From: a virus
Taxonomy: Duplodnaviria > Caudoviricetes
Reading direction: 5' to 3' (one strand)
Virus record (IMG/VR): IMGVR_UViG_3300029142_000002
Coordinates: 1 to 54,558 of that record
Length of the DNA stretch: 54,558 bases
The notes under the pieces: generated by a model
What the model was told of the DNA's origin: nothing
Databases searched by the model: none
Seen by the model: only the letters and a program-made list of their open reading frames with translations
Shown here: piece by piece, positions 3,901 to 54,548 of the stretch
Numbering within the stretch: position 1 is the first letter of the stretch
How the letters are laid out: every line of letters begins with the position of its first letter
Translations under genes and position numbers: made by a program

Positions 3901-4518
3901 ATGCCAGAGATCAAAACAGTAGACTTTTCTACCCTGTTTGATTTCTCCCGATGGGCGCGGCGTTTCATTGAGGTGCTGTCTGCATCAATCAGGCAGGCAA
4001 TCGATTCCGGCAAGCTGGCAGGAGGCTTAAGGGCTAACTTGACAGCAGAGCAGATAGAAGATATTCCTATCCAGTACGAGATTATTGCGCGCCAGGTAGC
4101 GCGTAGTGAACTGGTAAACCGCGAAACTGAGAAGCAGGTAACAAGCCTTCTAATCAGTATGACGCAGGAGAATGCAAGCCAGCAGGAAATGCAAAGGGCG
4201 CTGCGTAGACTGTTTGAGGGTTACAAAAAGTGGCGGGTTGACAGGATAACCAATACTGTTGTTGTAGGGGCTTTTGAGGCTGGACAGCTAGAGAGCTGGA
4301 AAGCTGCTGGCATACCGTCAAAGATCTGGATTTCTACGGCTGACGATCGTGTGCGTGAGGACCATGATTCGCGTGTACATACACGCCTATCTGAGCCAAT
4401 CGATATAAACTTACCCTTTGAGGTTGGTAATAGCTTGCTGCAGCATCCTGGTGATCCTGCAGGCCCTGCTAATCAGGTCATTAACTGCCGGTGCACAATG
4501 GCACCGTTTATAGAATGA
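3901..4518 (+). CDS. MuF/SPP1 gp7-like minor head protein (frame open from 3655, probably reached by frameshift)
   Basis: KIWISTADDRVREDH ... HPGDPAGPANQVINCRC motif; 82 sense codons upstream of the first ATG. Confidence 0.85.
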   Translation: MPEIKTVDFSTLFDFSRWARRFIEVLSASIRQAIDSGKLAGGLRANLTAEQIEDIPIQYEIIARQVARSELVNRETEKQVTSLLISMTQENASQQEMQRALRRLFEGYKKWRVDRITNTVVVGAFEAGQLESWKAAGIPSKIWISTADDRVREDHDSRVHTRLSEPIDINLPFEVGNSLLQHPGDPAGPANQVINCRCTMAPFIE

Positions 4519-5787: not shown

Positions 5788-7665
5788 ATGGAAAATCTAG
5801 AATTGGATACAGTTGTCTGGTACGGTGGCGAAGTCAAAGCGCTAGACGACGAAGGGAAAGTAGGTGGCTATCTGGTACGCTTTTCAACAGCAAGCGACCC
5901 CGACTTAGCCGGTGACTACTTTACGAAAGATACCGACTTCGGTTTTGCAACCAAGTCCACTGTTCTTTATCACCACGGCATGGATAAAACCATTAAAAGC
6001 CGCGATTTGGCAGTTGGCGAGCTAAAGATTGATGATGTAGGTGTCTGGATTGAAGGTCAGCTCAAGATGCGTGATGAGTATGAAAAGGCAATATTCGAAA
6101 TGGCAAAGGCGGGTAAGCTCGGCTGGTCATCTGGTACGGCTTCTCATCTTGTATCTCGCAAATCGGTAGGCAGCGCCACCGAGATACTGTCGTGGCCGCT
6201 TGGCTTAGACGCAAGCCTCACCCCTACCCCATGCGAGCCACGTACGCAGGCTATTCCCTTAAAATCACTGAATATCGAAGGTATTTCACTCGAAGTGCCT
6301 ACAAACGCAGAGCTTGAAAGCTCAGAGACAGAGAATGCAGAGGTTGATTCGCTATCGACGGACATTCCTGTAGTAGAAGAAAGCAATGCGGAGCCAACAG
6401 CATCGGCTAACGATGCAACAACCGCAGAACAACAAATGGAAAATACCACACCGCAGGCTGACGACCAGGTGCAGGAAACCCCTGCTATTGAGGTTGAAAA
6501 GCCCGCAGAGACTAAGTCTCAAGAACCATCAAGGATTATCGTTCCTACGCAGAACGTTACTATTCCCCTTGATCAGTACAACGCGCTTATCCAGCAGGAA
6601 GCAAAAGCTTACTCGCAAGAGCCTAAGCGCATCGTTAAGGCGTCCCACGACATTTCTACAGCGAACGTTAACCTGAAGACAGGACTTGGCGACAGCGAAC
6701 AGAAATCAATCGCACACTGGATAAAAACCGGTGACTGGGGCGCAGTAAGCCACATGAAAGCAACCAACGCCACAGGGCAGCAGGTTCTTTCAATCAAGGC
6801 TTCTAATGATACCGACATGAACGTTGGCACTGCTGCCGATGGTGGAAACGCTGTTCCTACGGGGCACTTTCAGAACATCGTAGCGCGCCGTGATGAAATG
6901 ATGCTGGCTAACCGCCTAGGCGTTCAAAACATCCCAGGCGTTGGCACTACTGTTAACGTGCCTGTTGATGCAGAGGATGACGGCGAGTTCGTTTCAACGG
7001 CAGAAGCAGCAGCTAACGACCGTGACGCTCCAGCGCTCGGTACGGTAGCGATGACGCTGGCCAAGTACACGAAGCGTGTAGAATTTAGCGACGAACTACT
7101 GCAGGATGAAGATAGCCGCCTCATGTCATTCATCGAGAACTTTATCTCTCGTGGCATGGCGAAGACGCACAATGATCTTTTGATCACTGAAGTCGAAACC
7201 AACGGCACAAGCCTCAAGTCCTTTGCAGGCACAGCCGCAATCGCAGCCGGTGAGATTCAGGACATCACATTCAATGATAACCTGGCCTACTACCTGGATG
7301 ATTCTGCCTCTGTAGCATGGGTTACACGCCCTGCGACATATGGAGAGATCATCTCTATTCAGGGTAATGAGTTCATTTACGACACCAATCCACAAGGATC
7401 TAGTGTCGCAACCAATGGCGCCAAAGGCATTTTGGCTCAGTATCCGGTGCATTTCTCGAACAAGGTTGAGACGCTTGCCATAGGCAACAAGTCGATCCTG
7501 TTTGGTAACTGGTTCTATGTAGGTGTTCGTAACGCTCCTGAGTTCCAGGTGCTGCGCGATCCTTACTCAGCAGCCACCACAGGCCAGCTTCGCCTTCACT
7601 ACTACTTCCGCACGGTGTACAAAGTACTCCAGGCCGAAGCAATTGGGTACGGCGAACAAGCATAG
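5788..7665 (+). CDS. Prohead protease - major capsid protein fusion (HK97 fold)
   Basis: N-terminal protease (DLAGDYF, VLYHHG, LGWSSG, DASLTPTP), acidic linker, HK97 capsid motifs (GGNAVP, ILFGNW, VLRDPYS). ATG at 5788 preferred to TTG at 5755. Confidence 0.92.
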   Translation: MENLELDTVVWYGGEVKALDDEGKVGGYLVRFSTASDPDLAGDYFTKDTDFGFATKSTVLYHHGMDKTIKSRDLAVGELKIDDVGVWIEGQLKMRDEYEKAIFEMAKAGKLGWSSGTASHLVSRKSVGSATEILSWPLGLDASLTPTPCEPRTQAIPLKSLNIEGISLEVPTNAELESSETENAEVDSLSTDIPVVEESNAEPTASANDATTAEQQMENTTPQADDQVQETPAIEVEKPAETKSQEPSRIIVPTQNVTIPLDQYNALIQQEAKAYSQEPKRIVKASHDISTANVNLKTGLGDSEQKSIAHWIKTGDWGAVSHMKATNATGQQVLSIKASNDTDMNVGTAADGGNAVPTGHFQNIVARRDEMMLANRLGVQNIPGVGTTVNVPVDAEDDGEFVSTAEAAANDRDAPALGTVAMTLAKYTKRVEFSDELLQDEDSRLMSFIENFISRGMAKTHNDLLITEVETNGTSLKSFAGTAAIAAGEIQDITFNDNLAYYLDDSASVAWVTRPATYGEIISIQGNEFIYDTNPQGSSVATNGAKGILAQYPVHFSNKVETLAIGNKSILFGNWFYVGVRNAPEFQVLRDPYSAATTGQLRLHYYFRTVYKVLQAEAIGYGEQA

Positions 7666-9221: not shown

Positions 9222-9631
9222 GATCTGCAAAGCTAGCATTACAGGATGCAATAGGTGATGCCATTAATGCGCAGTTCACTACTGATTCGATCAGTGCTAC
9301 CGCTGTTACTAATCCCGAGCAAGGCGGATCTATGCCGCTTGCGGTGATTGGTCAAGACAACGAGGACGATAGTGGCACCACTAAAGATCAGGATGCGAGC
9401 TCTATCGCCCATAACATCTACCTGCATAGCACAAGCATAGTAGAGGTCAAACAGATGGCAGATTCGGTGCTTCAGGCGGTGGGACCAGGAGAGACAAAAT
9501 TAAGCCTTGGCGCGAGCTTCTACGAGGTAGGACGCAAGCTAGAGGCAAACGATTTAACAACAGAGCGCAGGCCAGAGGGTGATATCTACAATGCTCTTGT
9601 TAGGGTGCGCTATCAAATAGGTCATAGGTAA
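9218..9631 (+). CDS. Tail terminator/completion protein (DUF3168-like)
   Basis: Size and position before the tube gene; PLAVIG motif. Confidence 0.7.
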   Translation: MRSAKLALQDAIGDAINAQFTTDSISATAVTNPEQGGSMPLAVIGQDNEDDSGTTKDQDASSIAHNIYLHSTSIVEVKQMADSVLQAVGPGETKLSLGASFYEVGRKLEANDLTTERRPEGDIYNALVRVRYQIGHR

Positions 9632-10092
9632 TGGCAGATACGGAAAAAGTCGGTAAAGATTTTCTGTTCTATATAAATGCAGGATCAGAACCATCTACAC
9701 CCGACGAAATAACCAACTACACAAAGGTGGGCTTGATCACGTCTTTCGAGTTCAGCCTTTCGGCAGATCGCATCCCTGTGGTTCATAAGGATACGGGCAA
9801 CTTCCGCGAAACGCTTGGCGGCTCACAGGGCTATACGATCAATCTTTCAGGCGTTGTTCCTACCGATGGCAACGCAGGGCATACAATCGTGCACGACGCA
9901 GCCAAGGCTACGGCAGACGCATCCAAGCTGGTTTACTGGCTTAATACGTCAGATGTGACTAATGATTATCAGAAGCGCGGCAGCGGTCGTGTGCTTGATT
10001 ACACGGAAAGCCACCCTACTGATGACGTGATCACATGGACGGCGGTGATCGAAGGTAATGGCGATTATACGCATGAGCTTGTAGACGCATAA
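9631..10092 (+). CDS. Major tail tube protein
   Basis: KVGKDFLFYI ... HKDTGNFRETLGG ... IEGNG pattern of TP901-1/GTA-like tube proteins; synteny. Confidence 0.85.
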   Translation: MADTEKVGKDFLFYINAGSEPSTPDEITNYTKVGLITSFEFSLSADRIPVVHKDTGNFRETLGGSQGYTINLSGVVPTDGNAGHTIVHDAAKATADASKLVYWLNTSDVTNDYQKRGSGRVLDYTESHPTDDVITWTAVIEGNGDYTHELVDA

Positions 10093-10119
10093 TCATAACA
10101 CATTCACTAACCCCCAAAG

Positions 10120-10380
10120 GTGATTTTTATGCTCGTTCAGGGTGGAGACCTGGAGTATTTCAAAAGGCACTTGAAAGAATATTTCAACGCCGATTACAGT
10201 TTGACAAAAGCTGTTAGAATAGAGTTCACCGATCCTGGTGACGGCAATAAGTGGCCTAACGTTCATATGACGCTAACGAAGGACACCAAGCCGGAATTAA
10301 AGGTCAGGTTTAGGCGTGATCATTTCCAGGCAGAGATCTACGACAAAGACGACAATCTTTTATACGGTAGTAAGCAATGA
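10120..10380 (+). CDS. Hypothetical protein
   Basis: Fills the gap between tube and chaperone genes; ATGA overlap with the next gene. Confidence 0.55.
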   Translation: MIFMLVQGGDLEYFKRHLKEYFNADYSLTKAVRIEFTDPGDGNKWPNVHMTLTKDTKPELKVRFRRDHFQAEIYDKDDNLLYGSKQ

Positions 10381-10712
10381 AAGCAGCAAACCCCCAGGCT
10401 GGTGAAGTGGCATTGAGCATTGATGGCAAGGATTATATCCTGCGCATGTCAATGAATAGGGCTGCTATAGCCGAAGGCTTTTTAGGGAAGTCGATCTGGA
10501 GCATAGACGGTGGTGGTGTCGCATATATTCGGGCGCTGTTCTTCTCAATGGTTCACGATCAAGGCGTCGAGTCTATCGATGCGGCAGGTGATCTTTTAAA
10601 CAGTTCTTTCAAATACTTAGCAGACGCTGTAATGCGCGCATTTACCCTTTTTTTCCAGATGCTAGGCGAGAAGGTGGTGAAAGTCATTCCCTTACGTGGA
10701 ATTACTTACTAG
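10377..10712 (+). CDS. Tail assembly chaperone (gpG-like)
   Basis: ANPQAGEVALSIDGKDYIL, GTA-gp10-like; contains in-phase slippery T_TTT_TTC at 10649-10655. Confidence 0.8.
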   Translation: MKAANPQAGEVALSIDGKDYILRMSMNRAAIAEGFLGKSIWSIDGGGVAYIRALFFSMVHDQGVESIDAAGDLLNSSFKYLADAVMRAFTLFFQMLGEKVVKVIPLRGITY

Positions 10713-11044
10713 AAACAGCAGTGGAATACGACATTTCGACTACTGAGTTCTGGCAGATGTCACTAAAAGACTTTGAACGTGTGGTCTGGACTAAAGGCAA
10801 TAAGCGGGTAAATGACGCTAAGGTAATGCACGAAACAGCGCTCTTACGTCTTGCGATTGGTACTAGTGATGTGATCAACATGATAGGAGGAACGCAGATC
10901 AAGGACTACAAACCGGTATCAGCAAAGGATTTGCTTGACAGGTGGCAAAATAAAACACTTAGCATCAAGGAGCTTAAGGCAAGAATGAAGGCAGCAGATG
11001 ATCGCAGTGAGGCAAGGCTTAAGCGCGAAAGGCGCAGAGGTTAA
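10655..11044 (+). CDS. Tail assembly chaperone gpT-like segment (expressed as a ~222 aa G-T fusion by -1 frameshift)
   Basis: -1 frame is open from the slippery site through 10721-11044; EFWQMS motif typical of gpT segments. Confidence 0.75.
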   Translation, partial: PDARREGGESHSLTWNYLLETAVEYDISTTEFWQMSLKDFERVVWTKGNKRVNDAKVMHETALLRLAIGTSDVINMIGGTQIKDYKPVSAKDLLDRWQNKTLSIKELKARMKAADDRSEARLKRERRRG

Positions 11045-21113: not shown

Positions 21114-21712
21114 TGCCTAAGAAAAAACGCAACCTTGGCGGCTTCTTCAAGAAGTTAGGTATGGGCGGGCTCGCTGTTGTGGCGGAGCTTGACCCTACAG
21201 GACTTGTCAAGAAGATCGGAAAGCAGTTTCCAGGGCTTAACGAGATCATTAGCGATGATAACCTGACCGACGCGCAGGTACAGGAAGAAATGATGGCTAA
21301 GTTTCCCAACATTGCCAGGGACCTTAGGGAGCTTGAGCTGCAGGAGTTTAAGACGCGCATGCAGACGTTGGTTGAGTTAGAAAATGCAGACGTAGCGCGT
21401 GAAAAGGTACATTCCGAAGACCGCGCAAGCGCACGAGATATGCGCATCAAGACAGGTGATAAATTCCCAAACTACCTGGCGGCGGGCACCGTGGTATTTG
21501 CCTTTGTGCTGGTCTTGCTGCTGCTGTTCTACGATATCCCCGAGGGTAACGAGCAGCTTTTAAATATAGGCTTTGGCGCAATACTGGGCGTCTTGTCAAC
21601 GATCTTTGCCTTTTTCTTTGGTAGCAGCTCCGGTAGCAAGAGAAAGACCGACAGCATGACGAAGATCATGAACGGTGGCAAGCCTCACCACTTTATACCT
21701 GGGGGCAAGTGA
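21113..21712 (+). CDS. Holin-like membrane protein
   Basis: DRASARDM motif, two C-terminal TM helices, FFFGSSSGS; precedes the endolysin; TAATG coupling at 21113. Confidence 0.7.
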   Translation: MPKKKRNLGGFFKKLGMGGLAVVAELDPTGLVKKIGKQFPGLNEIISDDNLTDAQVQEEMMAKFPNIARDLRELELQEFKTRMQTLVELENADVAREKVHSEDRASARDMRIKTGDKFPNYLAAGTVVFAFVLVLLLLFYDIPEGNEQLLNIGFGAILGVLSTIFAFFFGSSSGSKRKTDSMTKIMNGGKPHHFIPGGK

Positions 21713-22134
21713 TGTACAACATGCAGACGCATAGGGATAGCCTTTTGATCGACGTGCGCTGGTACGGTGAGTATTGGCGCGAGTATCCTATTGCGGAGCA
21801 TTTCACACTAGGCGAAGCTGCCTGCTCTGACGGCTCCCCCACTATCAAGCTTCACCCGGCCGCTATTCTGCTGGTTAGCGCAATACGCAGGGAATTTGGA
21901 ATAACTAGAATAAACTCATGGTACAGAACGCCAGGTTTTAACAGGTCTATTAACGGGAGCGAGTTCAGCAAGCACTTATACGGCATGGCCATTGACGTGC
22001 GCTGTGACCGGGTCACCCCTGAGACTGTTGCAAGTTTTGCAGACGAACTAGGCGCTGGAGGTGTTGGGATTTATGATTCTTTTACTCATGTTGATATTGC
22101 CGGTCAAAATAGAAGATGGGATAATCGTACTTAA
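21709..22134 (+). CDS. Endolysin, peptidase M15A family
   Basis: SWYRT...N...S.HLYGMAID and GVGIY..FTHVD zinc-binding motifs. Confidence 0.9.
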   Translation: MMYNMQTHRDSLLIDVRWYGEYWREYPIAEHFTLGEAACSDGSPTIKLHPAAILLVSAIRREFGITRINSWYRTPGFNRSINGSEFSKHLYGMAIDVRCDRVTPETVASFADELGAGGVGIYDSFTHVDIAGQNRRWDNRT

Positions 22135-24113: not shown

Positions 24114-24419
24114 ATGCAGTGTAAGAACTGCGCTCCCCTTATGGTATTCGAAGCTATGACAGATGATACACGTGTTGTTGACATTTACGAGAAGAAAGGA
24201 CGCTACAAAATAGACGGTGATATAGCATATCAGATCACCGAAGACGGGCAACAGATACCCGTATCTATTCCCTATGTGCTGTCACTGATTGCCCGTCACA
24301 GAAGGCACTACAAACACAAGGGCGAACCTGTAACATTTAAAAGCTATTGGATGCTTGCAGGAATATCGTTTGGGTTTACGATTTTAGTTGGCGGGCTGCT
24401 GTGGATGTGGCTGTTTTAA
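24114..24419 (+). CDS. Hypothetical protein with C-terminal TM helix
   Basis: ORF track; hydrophobic C-terminus. Confidence 0.55.
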   Translation: MQCKNCAPLMVFEAMTDDTRVVDIYEKKGRYKIDGDIAYQITEDGQQIPVSIPYVLSLIARHRRHYKHKGEPVTFKSYWMLAGISFGFTILVGGLLWMWLF

Positions 24420-24472: not shown

Positions 24473-24735
24473 TCATGTGTTGCAGTTGTGTAACACTTAA
24501 AACACTAGTTGATTTGGCGTTAATTGAATCAATTAGGCATCTTTTGTATTTTACTATATCTGCAAACTACAATAGGTGACAGACTTCCCTTTAAGCTGTT
24601 ACCGAAGTCAATACTGAATATCCCGTACCTGTTCAACCTTCTGTGTCAATATCGGACTAGCTACCCGTTACACACGGAACGCTTTGTAGGCGTGCAGGGG
24701 TTGTAACAGTGCGGGAGTCTTCAACGGAGGAATAA

Positions 24736-25686
24736 ATGCCACAGTTCAAAAGTTCGCGGGGGTATAGTATACCCGGTGGCGATGGGCAGTCAGGCGTTGC
24801 AACACGCAGCAAAAGAGGAGAACGCATTAAGCTAGAAATAGCACCTAACAAACCGCAGTCGAAACTGGTTACACCATCTGGTGATCCTGTCACAATTAGC
24901 AGCCAGTCGAATACGCAGTTACTCAGAGAAGCACACGTAGAATCTGACGCATTTAATACCAAGAGCAAGAAGAAGGTTAAAAGTACTTACCGTGTTTTTA
25001 ACTGGATAGGGGGCGTAGGCATTATTGGTATTATTCTGGGCGGTTGTGTGATGGGCATTACCTATTCGCTAAGTCATAAAATATCCGACATTGAATGGGT
25101 GAACTACCTTATGGCCGCGTCTACATCGATTGGCTTGATTATAGGTATTCTGTTTCTGGGCAACTCGTTCAAGGGGCTTAAGGCAGGTGCTTTTCAAGGA
25201 ATTGACAAATGGATAGTAACCATCTCTATGGGGCTTGTTTTCCTCGACGAGATAGGCGGCGGCGTTGTTATGTTCAACCCTGAGTTTCAATCGTTTTATT
25301 ATACGTTCTTTGCACCTCTGATGCTGCCGTATATTGTGCTTGTGTCTAAGGGGCTGGAGCTGCTTAACACAAAGGAGCGGCGTAGCCGGAAAGCCAATTC
25401 TGTTAAGGAGAAGAGAAAGCACGTATTGGCGATGCAGGAGCACCAGATTCCATTACAAAAGGCGAAGGCAGAAGAGAAGGCGCGGCAGGTAGGGTCATTT
25501 GCCGCAATGGTTCACCGGGGAAAGGTATCATTCCTTTCTACAGTGCTTTCGTTTTTCTCTGGGTGGGGGGCTGCTATAAGTCAGGCGCAAGGCAATATTC
25601 AAGACAGCATTAACAGGCAAGCCGCTTTTATTGAAAGCAAGCCCAGAAAGAAAACAGCGAGCAGAAAGGCAAAAGCAAAAAAGTAG
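24736..25686 (+). CDS. Multi-TM membrane protein with basic coiled-coil tail
   Basis: GGAGG RBS; about four hydrophobic helices; ends on A_AAA_AAG TAG. Confidence 0.8.
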   Translation: MPQFKSSRGYSIPGGDGQSGVATRSKRGERIKLEIAPNKPQSKLVTPSGDPVTISSQSNTQLLREAHVESDAFNTKSKKKVKSTYRVFNWIGGVGIIGIILGGCVMGITYSLSHKISDIEWVNYLMAASTSIGLIIGILFLGNSFKGLKAGAFQGIDKWIVTISMGLVFLDEIGGGVVMFNPEFQSFYYTFFAPLMLPYIVLVSKGLELLNTKERRSRKANSVKEKRKHVLAMQEHQIPLQKAKAEEKARQVGSFAAMVHRGKVSFLSTVLSFFSGWGAAISQAQGNIQDSINRQAAFIESKPRKKTASRKAKAKK

Positions 25687-25859
25687 GGGCAGGGGAGAAG
25701 CTTAAAACTGAGAAACCCCGTAAGACCAGGCGCCGAAAGTGTAACAACAAGGAGTGCGACAATGATGTGTTTGGCAAGGCAGATACGTGCAGCCCAAGTT
25801 GCCGAACAAAGATAAGCCGCAAGCCGTCGCTTAGGCGCAGAAAAAAAACCACCGCTTAA
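25683..25859 (+). CDS. -1 frame extension encoding a Cys4 zinc finger (58 aa)
   Basis: VGAGEKLKTEKPRKTRRRKCNNKECDNDVFGKADTCSPSCRTKISRK...; no start codon upstream of the first Cys pair. Confidence 0.65.
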   Translation, partial: VGAGEKLKTEKPRKTRRRKCNNKECDNDVFGKADTCSPSCRTKISRKPSLRRRKKTTA

Positions 25860-25869
25860 TAGGTCACAC

Positions 25870-25919
25870 AGCCTCTACTCTAGACGATGGCGTATCGTCA
25901 GAAGGGTAGGGGCTTTTTT
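25870..25919 (+). terminator. Intrinsic terminator between convergent transcription units
   Basis: AGCCTCTACTCT...AGGGTAGGGGCT stem with inner GACGAT/ATCGTC, followed by a T-run. Confidence 0.7.
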
Positions 25920-26151
25920 AGTTTAGAGATATTGTACCCAGTGACTTGATATATGCGTCAAATTTCTCGTATTTCTTAAGTCTCAATTCTCCCTCCTTAA
26001 TAATTCTGTTAAGCTCCTGCTCGCGTTCCTCAGATCTTGCTACCATTCGGCAATATGCATCACGTACTTGCCATTCCCTGATCAGGTATCCGCCAATTCC
26101 ACCAGCAACCATAAGCATCAATAAGGAAACAATTTCATGTAACTTTTCCAT
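25918..26151 (-). CDS. Small membrane-anchored coiled-coil protein
   Basis: GGGAGG RBS; N-terminal TM helix. Confidence 0.6.
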   Translation of the reverse strand: MEKLHEIVSLLMLMVAGGIGGYLIREWQVRDAYCRMVARSEEREQELNRIIKEGELRLKKYEKFDAYIKSLGTISLN

Positions 26152-26177
26152 TGAATTTGAAACAGCCTCCCACTGCT

Positions 26178-26327
26178 TTATTTTCCAAAGAACAAGGAGA
26201 TAACAGCTAGAATAATGCCTCCAAAGGAAAGAATTAACCAGGCAATCCTGTTGTCTTTTCTCTGTTCATCAATGGCATTCATCTGATTTTTTATCAATGA
26301 TTCCATTGCTTTATAATAATCATCCAT
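26178..26327 (-). CDS. Small protein with C-terminal TM helix (49 aa, not in the ORF track)
   Basis: Translated by hand as MDDYYKAMESLIKNQMNAIDEQRKDNRIAWLILSFGGIILAVISLFFGK. Confidence 0.55.
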   Translation of the reverse strand: MDDYYKAMESLIKNQMNAIDEQRKDNRIAWLILSFGGIILAVISLFFGK

Positions 26328-26328
26328 G

Positions 26329-26508
26329 TCAAAAGCCGAAGCTGATAAGGTTATTAAGTGGTGTTATGATAATGCCTTGCGCCGTCCGGTTGTCACGAAC
26401 GACCGTCACCGCTATGTGCTCCGCTGGGAGATGGCAACGGGTGGTGATTTCGTCACAAACCAGTACGACAGCGCAAGGCATTGGTGTAGGATTATGGAGA
26501 TTGAACAT
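26329..26508 (-). CDS. Hypothetical protein (MFNLHNPTP...); strand uncertain
   Basis: Fits the leftward gene run and stops 1 nt before the next ATG; competes with the + ORF at 26326-26595. Confidence 0.4.
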   Translation of the reverse strand: MFNLHNPTPMPCAVVLVCDEITTRCHLPAEHIAVTVVRDNRTAQGIIITPLNNLISFGF

Positions 26509-26536
26509 AAAGCAGGGGTAATAGGCTACTGGCAGG

Positions 26537-26791
26537 CTAGGGCAGCAGAAACCAGCCCAAAAGGGCAACTGCCAGGAAAACCAAAAAGACAATAACAAAG
26601 TCTTTAGCCTCTTGCTGCAAATCGGGATCTTGACCCAGCAGGGTTTCAATCCTTTTTATCTGCTTTTCTATGTTCGGATCTTCCTGCTCGGTTTGCTTTC
26701 TGATTCTTGAATTAACCTGCCGTTGACGCTTTTCGGCATCCATGTCGCGTTCAATCTGCTTGAGTATCTTTTTTTCTTGCTTGTTCATCAT
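26537..26791 (-). CDS. Coiled-coil protein with C-terminal TM helix
   Basis: ATGA overlap with the upstream gene; hydrophobic C-terminus. Confidence 0.6.
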   Translation of the reverse strand: MMNKQEKKILKQIERDMDAEKRQRQVNSRIRKQTEQEDPNIEKQIKRIETLLGQDPDLQQEAKDFVIVFLVFLAVALLGWFLLP

Positions 26792-53638: not shown

Positions 53639-54548
53639 ATGGCGAATAATTATCCAGCAGTCATAGAGACAAAAGATGGCGACATTATAAAGCTGCTCAA
53701 CGACGGCCCTCCGTCTGTTGTCCCTGTTGATCGTTTGGTATTGCACGAAGCAAATCCGCGCCAGGGTGATGTTGGTGCGCTTGCTGTGTCGTACAAAGAG
53801 AACGGGTTCTATGGTTCAGTAATAGTAGATGCACGCGACATGCGCGTGTTAGCGGGTAATCACCGTGTAAAGGCTGCTGTTGCTCTTGGCATGGAGAAGA
53901 TTCCTGTGCAGCTCATAAAGACAGATAGCGAAATGCACGCTATCAAGATACTACTAGCTGACAATAGGCACAGCGACCTGGCCACGTATGATAATGAGGT
54001 CTTGGCAGAGTTATTACAGACGGTGGCGCTGTCTGATGAGGGATTACTGGGTACTGGTTTTGATGGCGACGATGTAGATGAATTACTAAAGGAGGTAGGC
54101 TTTGCTAGTGATCCAGAAGAAGCACCAGAAGCGGAGATAGACAGGGCTGAAGAATTGCGCGTTAAGTGGGGCGTTGAGCATGGACAACTGTGGCAGATTG
54201 GGCGGCACCGGCTGCTTTGCGGTGACAGTACGAATAACGATGATGTGGAGCGGCTGCTGGGTGGGAATGAGCCCGCTTTAATGGTTACAGACCCACCGTA
54301 TGGCGTTGAATATGATCCCAAATGGCGCGCAGCGGTAGGTATCAACAAAAACAAGAATAAAATGGGCAAAGTCCAGAACGATGATCGTGCGGATTGGACT
54401 GAAGCATGGGAATTATCGCCTGCTAATGTTGCTTACTGCTGGCATGCCGACCGGCATGCCAGTGAGGTGCAGACTAGCTTAGAAAGCGCAGGTTTTGAGA
54501 TGCGTAGCCAAATTATATGGGCTAAAGACCGCATGGCGTTGAGTCGTG
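53639..54548 (+). CDS. N-terminal part of ParB-N + N4/N6 DNA methyltransferase (not in the ORF track because it runs off the end)
   Basis: Translated by hand: HEANPR...VLAGNHRVKAA...LADNR (ParB-like), GRHRLLCGDST, VTDPPYG; in frame with 12..557. Confidence 0.9.
54351..54548. repeat. Terminal direct repeat, right copy
   Basis: Matches 1-198. Confidence 0.95.

Follow-up and report, generated by a model that had tools for sequence, protein, structure and literature searches.

The virus record IMGVR_UViG_3300029142_000002 (Duplodnaviria; Caudoviricetes) contains a gene for a four-helix membrane protein that, to judge from its sequence, is probably expressed by programmed -1 ribosomal frameshifting. 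The stretch of DNA analyzed here, called the window below, is the whole virus record, positions 1 to 54,558 (54,558 bases). In the zero frame the gene encodes a protein of 316 amino acids (aa), and its last sense codons contain the heptamer A_AAA_AAG, which is followed immediately by a TAG stop codon. An overlapping -1 frame continues from this point for 58 codons, such that ribosomes that shift would produce a second isoform of 374 aa whose additional tail is probably cytoplasmic and nucleic-acid-binding. The features that make up this arrangement are as follows (ORF, open reading frame).

24736..25686, plus strand: zero-frame ORF of 316 aa, whose product begins with a basic, disordered stretch and continues with four membrane helices, a long helix that is also basic, and a Lys-rich C-terminal end
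25677..25683, plus strand: slippery heptamer A_AAA_AAG, in X_XXY_YYZ register
25684..25686, plus strand: zero-frame stop codon TAG, directly 3' of the heptamer (a 'shifty stop' context)
25683..25859, plus strand: -1 frame extension of 58 codons plus TAA (25857-25859), very basic and without a start codon of its own
25740..25802, plus strand: Cys motif C-x4-C-x10-C-S-P-S-C, a putative zinc knuckle, zinc binding being judged from spacing alone

A slippery heptamer adjoins the stop codon of the four-helix gene

The 316-aa ORF ends with GCA AAA AAG TAG. In-phase heptamers of the form A_AAA_AAR occur six times in ORFs of at least 90 aa, and only the one at 25677-25683 both adjoins a stop codon and leads into a long -1 frame: 58 open -1 codons follow it, versus 1, 20, 19, 6 and 7 after the others. 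The -1 frames of 14 long genes in the window contain 0.084 stops per codon and are open for 58 codons or more at 1.7% of 7474 positions. The heptamer alone is not over-represented, with AAAAAAG present 20 times in the window and 14.7 ± 3.6 expected. A stop codon placed directly after a slippery sequence, the 'shifty stop', is said to be an established, classical frameshift stimulator, a view that reportedly goes back to Weiss et al. in 1987. A_AAA_AAG, the site of dnaX, is described in PMC5009743 as the most shift-prone heptamer tested in Escherichia coli, above A_AAA_AAA and the U-rich heptamers.

A preliminary description of this locus, made from the sequence alone, had considered that reads might show seven A residues (A7) and therefore one continuous ORF. 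Logan contigs compared with the window over 24600-26000 show A6 instead. Both contigs that cover the site have it, each with 0 differences and 0 gaps: one from run X1, possibly the source sample, at a word depth of ~5100, and one from run X4, which belongs to a different study carried out nine years later (depth 2). Contigs of runs X3-X5 left parts of the gene uncovered. An assembly error in the A6 is thus excluded. Because these data are contigs rather than reads, a minor A7 sub-population is possible, and homopolymer tracts can change length while contigs drop rare variants. A switch at the DNA level, in which A6 and A7 interconvert during replication and a sub-population of phages turns to the long form, is nevertheless very improbable: the A6 is identical in two studies nine years apart, the A7 of a relative (L004, below) is identical in two records, no assembled relative has the in-frame length, and tracts of 6-7 are short for contingency loci.

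The -1 frame encodes a basic, Cys-containing tail

Read from 25683, the -1 frame encodes VGAGEKLKTEKPRKTRRRKCNNKECDNDVFGKADTCSPSCRTKISRKPSLRRRKKTTA, which includes the basic block K-P-R-K-T-R-R-R-K in addition to the Cys motif. Open no further back than 25635, this frame contains neither ATG nor GTG nor TTG ahead of the first Cys pair, and the earliest of these codons is the GTG at 25767, beyond that pair. Codon usage favours it, with a log-odds score for the tail of +5.7 in the -1 frame versus -24.0 and -51.9 in the other two plus-strand frames. Among control windows taken off-frame from real genes, only 1.1% and 0% score as high as 5.7, and the adjoining end of the ORF scores 7.7. The -1 frame beyond the heptamer has, therefore, the character of coding sequence.

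Since the tail is extremely basic, it probably binds nucleic acid, and zinc binding is a reasonable inference from the spacing of its Cys residues. No longer protein containing the window's tail was found, and a tail profile recovered only two weak in-frame carriers: a CxCGCG...(H/C)RKR motif recurs in frame in these two unrelated database proteins, with weak E-values of 9e-3 and 9e-2. A PDB sequence search with the tail profile returned a low-complexity match only.

Within the tail region, a low-depth contig of run X1 (5.7 vs ~5100) links 25696-25725 to unrelated upstream sequence, which reflects a minor variant, recombination or a branch in the assembly.

The frame transition and the tail are conserved in distant relatives

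A HMMER pass over 1.84 billion representatives identified 12 clusters of homologues (P0001-P0012; 280-342 aa), a thirteenth match of 719 aa having been set aside as low-complexity (E 1.4e-4). None of the 12 clusters contains an in-frame fusion with the tail, and none is long enough to do so. Lys-Lys occupies the position of the frameshift in 10 of the 12 proteins and lies three columns away in an eleventh; five homologues end exactly at Lys-Lys, and in another five the zero frame goes on to a short KKA..RR(W)F.. end. Standard gene calling hides a conserved domain here, as all 12 database entries stop at or near the slippery site.

The DNA of relatives was reached via a neighbouring phosphoesterase gene and via P0003. 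No further loci came from P0005 (viral and metagenome collections), A2 (viral, metagenome and genome collections) or A5 (genome and viral collections), and a scan of the collections for the DNA pattern of the site returned the L002 record only. A pattern scan with AAACCNCGTAAGACCAGGCGC (L002 7464-7484) gave no match although the L002 record contains it, so that this blank is unreliable. In L002, whose protein is 45% identical to that of the window, the same heptamer lies at 7413-7419 and the ORF ends with ACA AAA AAG TAG; the -1 frame, of 63 codons, reads VEAGEGSSTVKVSTRKPRKTRRRKRKYSTCQCGCGEAIVSPRAGKKFQNATHRKRWERQRSKA. In L004, whose protein is 29% identical (alignment A2), the site at 3936-3942 reads GTA AAA AAA GCA, that is, A_AAA_AAA in register; the zero frame extends for 10 more codons (KKAQRRRFRLW), and 72 codons are open in the -1 frame, ...EKPRKPQAKRRKKRGKVYTHCQCGCNEEIPAEDRMAGKMYLNDTHGARVRNRERRKRQKAKA. 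Over 1900 bases, A7 included, another record (L005) does not differ from L004.

All three loci with DNA therefore carry a slippery A-run in X_XXY_YYZ register at the homologous Lys-Lys, with a stop codon adjacent to it in two of them, and in all three the -1 frame (58, 63 and 72 codons) lacks ATG, GTG and TTG before its Cys motif, for which the chance is ~1.7% per locus. As proteins, the tails are homologous (L002-L004, z 14.3; window-L002, z 5.7; none of 2000 shuffles as high in either case). All three tails have the second Cys pair, C-x3-C (tail residues C36 and C40), unchanged, and in a three-tail alignment the C-S-P-S-C of the window is matched to C-Q-C-G-C of the relatives. In place of the first pair, the relatives have CxCxC and then a downstream His, within a ...(F/Y)xNxTH motif. 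Across the loci the Pro codon of the K-P-R-K-T-R-R-R-K block is CCC, CCT or CCG, and one of its Arg codons is CGA or AGA; these codon changes are silent in the -1 frame only. The three loci thus represent natural variants in three respects: whether a stop codon adjoins the site, whether the run is A6G or A7, and which of two kinds of Cys motif the tail has.

These comparisons bear directly on whether the tail is translated at all. It could be untranslated, either what is left of a gene that used to be continuous or a frame open by chance, with the 316-aa protein as the sole product; K-rich C-termini favour A-runs, and the heptamer alone, as noted, is not in excess. In a remnant, however, three lineages at 29-45% identity would not all have kept the frame open, free of starts and conserved at the protein level, the supposed ancestral in-frame form is found in none of the 12 clusters, codon usage favours the -1 frame, and the terminator (described below) sits after the -1 stop. 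We consider an untranslated tail quite unlikely, since the same frame transition, A-run and selected tail in far-diverged lineages cannot be explained by mutation or by a decaying gene. Translation of the tail was also what the preliminary description had supposed, in proposing a frameshift that appends a hidden Cys-rich tail to yield isoforms of 316 and 374 aa. Its statements on the ORF ending in GCA_AAA_AAG_TAG, on the heptamer, on the 58-codon -1 frame with a Cys motif in a basic context that stops just before the terminator, and on the missing start codon ahead of the first Cys pair all hold. It had looked to homologues for a conserved heptamer or an in-frame finger, and they have the slippery run in three of three DNA loci and the fusion in none of 12 clusters.

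Two other ways of reading this region were tried and rejected. Read-through or reassignment of the TAG does not fit, as codon usage gives the zero frame past it a score of -24 and, in L002, that frame meets a stop after 8 codons, and the long ORFs of the window read normally under table 11. An antisense ORF at 25628..25852 scores like the sense tail, but no minus-strand ORF of at least 40 aa lies over the tail in L002.

Programmed ribosomal frameshifting as the likely route to the long isoform

In the mechanism that we propose, most ribosomes would stop at the TAG at 25684 and yield a 316-aa inner-membrane protein with four helices. A fraction would slip back by one base on A_AAA_AAG, either with both Lys tRNAs or through movement of the P-site tRNA-Lys from AAG to AAA while the slowly decoded stop codon occupies the A site. 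Shifted ribosomes would read GTA next and add 58 residues, giving the 374-aa isoform. The tail is expected to be cytoplasmic because the protein has four membrane helices and positively charged termini, and it would there most likely bind nucleic acid, such that, in a membrane assembly, an arm able to bind nucleic acid would be present on a fixed minority of the subunits.

The same 374-aa product would arise by standard translation if RNA polymerase added one A on the A6 or A7 run. All three sites are pure A-runs (A6, A6 and A7), no ribosomal stimulator structure was found, and transcriptional realignment of this type is used by IS elements, Thermus dnaX and Shigella spa13 (PMC5009743). The exact X_XXY_YYZ register in three of three loci, and the terminal G and adjacent stop in two of three, are features that matter to ribosomes and are irrelevant to RNA polymerase. 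In addition, the runs are short of the usual length, productive bacterial transcriptional slippage sites being usually runs of 8-9 or more. For these reasons we judge slippage by RNA polymerase to be unlikely.

Alternatively, the tail might not be fused at all, with ribosomes re-initiating after the TAG, or starting at a non-canonical codon, to produce it as a small protein of its own. The stop codon overlaps the first codon of the tail (AAG_TAG / G_TAG), and downstream of the site both the window and L002 have a GGGGAG, which is G-rich and resembles a Shine-Dalgarno sequence. None of the three loci, however, has an ATG, GTG or TTG before the Cys motif, and the sole near-cognate codon, an ATC in L004, lies far upstream. 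In L004, moreover, the zero-frame stop lies 10 codons inside the tail frame, making stop-start coupling at the beginning of the tail impossible there. Independent synthesis of the tail is, in our estimation, scarcely credible.

Several observations weigh against programmed ribosomal frameshifting onto a zinc-binding tail. The DNA comparison consists of three independent loci (the window, L002 and L004), and the other nine homologue clusters (P0004-P0012) are represented by protein only. L004 has A_AAA_AAA and lacks the adjacent stop. This heptamer is less shifty than A_AAA_AAG in E. coli, and the efficiency of a heptamer depends on the tRNA-Lys set of the host, with about half of bacteria having one tRNA-Lys (PMC5009743). 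Similarity between the tails of the window and L004 is, taken alone, not significant (z 1.4; 191 of 2000 shuffles as high).

Stimulatory elements are a further difficulty. Folding of the 104 nucleotides (nt) from the site gave z of 0.3, -1.8 and -0.4 in the three loci, and no convincing structure 5-9 nt downstream; hairpins occur at 8, 16-30 and 12 nt, in an architecture that is not shared, and a possible compensatory pair, GGGG/CCCC vs GAGG/CCUC, was noticed by eye and is ambiguous. Upstream, reading of the three loci revealed no consistent Shine-Dalgarno-like stimulator: AAGG occurs 7 nt from the site in the window and ~14 nt from it in L002, and is absent from L004.

The identity of the tail as a zinc finger, as the preliminary description had named it, fared less well than the frameshift. 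Pfam offers no support (0 families for the three tails at E<=10), and the AlphaFold model of the tail, with a predicted local distance difference test score (pLDDT) of 54 and no secondary structure, is unusable. Of the cysteines whose conservation was in question, the second pair stood, being invariant in the three tails, and the first pair of the window (C-x4-C) did not, as it is not conserved.

The zero-frame ORF encodes a predicted four-helix membrane protein that matches no known family

Membrane helices are predicted at approximately residues 91-109, 124-142, 155-175 and 186-206. Four hydrophobic helices are present in all seven family members examined, and a fifth, weaker hydrophobic stretch in only three of the seven. 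Lys and Arg number 16 within the N-terminal 87 residues and 24 beyond helix 4, counts that favour an N-in/C-in topology, with both termini in the cytoplasm. An AlphaFold model of the 316-aa protein based on 12 sequences (pLDDT 69) is all-helical and has one long helix at residues 212-297. A (S/G)GDGQ(S/T) motif is found near the N-terminus in most family members and near the C-terminus in P0008 and P0009.

Searches with the protein and its model placed it in no known family. Foldseek with the 316-aa model gave 0 matches to PDB and BFVD at E<=0.001, and ESM Atlas gave nothing at or above 0.9, with template-modelling (TM) scores of at most 0.26. Pfam, PHROGs and PADLOC, searched with the ORF and the tails, returned sub-threshold matches only, for example HAAS_TM (E 8.9e-4; 19.8 bits vs a cut-off of 28.3). 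A word-index protein search with the ORF found only itself, and tblastn and megablast against phage GenBank found no match. For the anti-phage defence and exclusion profiles of PADLOC, 0 families were matched at E<=0.1 by the ORF, the tail, two neighbouring genes or two homologues. The DNA tether, sensor or defence effector suggested in the preliminary description thus gains nothing from PADLOC, PHROGs, Pfam or the fold searches, all of which were empty.

A holin was considered and rejected. The protein has 316 aa, versus typically <150 aa for holins, and its gene lies 2.6 kb and four ORFs beyond that for the M15 peptidase endolysin (21709..22134); the sole holin match was to Phage_holin_3_6, with E 0.22 and 12 bits vs a cut-off of 28.4.

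The gene is flanked by a structured RNA leader and a terminator

The preliminary description had assigned a regulatory region and a terminator to the locus, and both were found: a conserved structured RNA leader precedes the four-helix gene and a terminator hairpin follows it.

24114..24419, plus strand: small protein gene (101 aa, with a single membrane helix at the C-terminus), which is the conserved partner on the upstream side of the cassette
24575..24716, plus strand: structured RNA leader, with helix 1 at 24575-24582/24597-24603 and a core at 24621-24716
24726..24731, plus strand: Shine-Dalgarno-like GGAGGA, 4 nt ahead of the ATG
25870..25920, plus strand: terminator hairpin (25870-25914) plus U6, 10 nt past the -1 stop

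The terminator hairpin has a folding energy of -26.4 kcal/mol (z -4.7; 0 of 200 shuffles as stable); its long loop caused a simple terminator scan to miss it. At each of the three loci a hairpin comes after the -1 stop and not after the zero-frame stop. That of L004 (z -3.1) is followed by UGUUUUUG, and that of L002 (z -1.2) by a weak U tract.

In the core of the leader, a long stem (24621-24639/24698-24716) encloses hairpins at 24640-24678 and 24681-24695, and the leader ends 9 nt ahead of GGAGGA. The corresponding positions are 6267-6408 in L002 and 2840-2981 in L004. In the three phages the gap between the small-protein gene and the four-helix gene measures ~310-330 nt and is conserved better than the proteins. 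RNAalifold on the three loci gave a common fold, in which pairing is kept in 95.5% of 110 cells, versus 35-48% with the partners slid; compensatory changes occur in 14 of the 38 pairs, and none of 500 shuffles reached any of five measures. Covariation from three sequences is suggestive rather than proof, though the slid controls are clear. A covariance model, R1, detected exactly one copy of the leader in each of three phage records with the gene and none in one related record without it. Rfam contained no match at E<=1, and the leader is an undescribed structured RNA.

The GGAGGA ahead of the ATG has counterparts at the same place in L002 (AGGAGGA) and L004 (GAGG). By a loose criterion, a Shine-Dalgarno-like motif occurs at only 8 of 18 other gene starts in the window.

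Homologues of the small upstream protein are encoded at the same place in L002 (5891..6139; BLASTP E 1e-5) and L004 (2403..2663; E 1e-4), each with a C-terminal hydrophobic helix. The small proteins share an RY(K/E)I.G motif, and a C-x2-C start is present in the window copy alone. Pfam, PHROG and PADLOC contained no match to the protein.

Relation to known recoding systems and possible roles

Among the closest precedents for the site is dnaX of E. coli, which uses the same heptamer, A_AAA_AAG, and tRNA-Lys to make two products, tau and gamma, from one gene at a set ratio (PMC5009743). In dnaX an upstream Shine-Dalgarno-like sequence and a downstream stem-loop act as stimulators, and neither was found here. 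In addition, the dnaX shift truncates the protein, whereas the shift proposed here would extend it with a new domain, and the two proteins are unrelated.

The OrfA-OrfB fusions of IS3-family elements are also similar in architecture. The heptamer of IS911 and IS150 is likewise A_AAA_AAG. In these elements, as in the four-helix gene, a -1 shift near the end of the upstream ORF fuses it to an overlapping frame that lacks a start (PMC5009743). Unlike the IS3-family elements, the locus described here has no transposase and no inverted repeats; a 58-aa basic tail with a putative Cys knuckle would instead be joined to a phage membrane protein.

Among phages, a parallel is the tail assembly chaperone frameshift of the lambda G/GT type, which is likewise a conserved -1 shift giving a C-terminally extended minor isoform. 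That frameshift is conserved by position and mechanism rather than by sequence, as stated in PMC5009743. It is near-universal in long-tailed phages, whereas the family described here comprises 12 clusters among 1.84 billion representatives and is thus tiny; gene, protein class and genome position all differ from those of the four-helix gene. The phage seems to have a chaperone frameshift of its own. A second homopolymeric site, T_TTT_TTC (10649-10655), lies in register near the end of the ORF at 10377..10712, after the major tail protein gene; the -1 frame is open there from 10592 to 11044, and the next ORF occupies 10721..11044. This identification is by position only, because neither ORF matched a PHROG.

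To our knowledge, few conserved phage frameshifts are known besides those of tail-assembly chaperones and some capsid genes. A full-text search of the literature, as far as the texts were accessible, found no description of a frameshift joining a phage membrane protein to a zinc finger, and in the accessible portion of the paper on PRFect (PMC10885494) 'membrane' and 'holin' occur 0 times. The mechanism invoked here is a textbook one; what is new is the gene family, together with its trans-frame domain and leader RNA. The A_AAA_AAG site would give a membrane protein, in a gene family named by no database, a sub-stoichiometric nucleic-acid-binding arm.

With respect to function, the phi29 protein p16.7 offers a partial analogy. 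It is a phage inner-membrane protein with a cytoplasmic, nucleic-acid-binding part, is the product of an early gene and has the role of organising phage DNA at the membrane. The two proteins are alike in function alone, as p16.7 has no sequence or fold relation to the four-helix protein; it also has one membrane helix and no recoding, and its gene is early, whereas the four-helix gene ends the late block. The four-helix protein may serve as a phage-DNA tether, in exclusion, in the timing of lysis, or in regulation via its own leader, roles between which none of the present tests discriminates. If the long isoform does bind DNA or its own leader at the membrane, it would define a new functional class of phage membrane proteins.

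It is conceivable, although taken as a whole we think it improbable, that temperate aquatic phages have in this cassette a self-contained membrane device, in which frameshifting sets the ratio of plain subunits to subunits with a zinc-knuckle arm, and in which the arm binds either its own mRNA leader, for autoregulation or membrane-localised translation, or incoming or replicating DNA. With DNA as the target, such a device may, by analogy, act as a Rex-type exclusion sensor-channel or a tether of the phi29 p16.7 type, and the leader may be a new class of RNA tied to the family.

The cassette closes the late gene block of a temperate phage

PHROG matches in the window are those of a tailed temperate phage. 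On the plus strand they include the small and large terminase, portal, head-morphogenesis protein, major head protein, adaptor and closure proteins, and major tail protein, followed by large tail-spike or depolymerase-like proteins and the M15-peptidase endolysin; an integrase, methyltransferases and an HNH endonuclease are encoded elsewhere. The sequencing runs that contain the stretch are aquatic metagenomes, and no RNA run is listed among them. The four-helix gene is at the very end of the rightward late block, and the genes after it switch to the minus strand. The cassette, composed in order of the tail-anchored protein gene, the RNA leader, the four-helix gene with its frameshift site and the terminator, closes this block of structural and lysis genes. 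No tRNA genes, sought as a clue to the host, were found in the window.

The ends of the record, 1-198 and 54351-54548, repeat each other (198 nt, 99% identical), and an ORF for a ParB-methyltransferase runs off the 3' end of the window and resumes at its 5' end. Although its classification is linear with 66% completeness, the record probably represents a whole genome, circular or terminally redundant, of ~54.35 kb.

On the minus strand, three small ORFs (77, 49 and 84 aa; 25918..26791) converge on the terminator hairpin of the four-helix gene; each, as read from its translation, has a hydrophobic helix. Beyond them lies a 331-aa ORF with a lipoprotein-like signal ending in Cys, and neither it nor the three small ORFs had a family match. 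In L002, an ORF at 9384..10601 resembles a tyrosine recombinase (translation read by eye, with no family scan) and lies ~2 kb past the cassette, which places the cassette close to an integration module in that phage.

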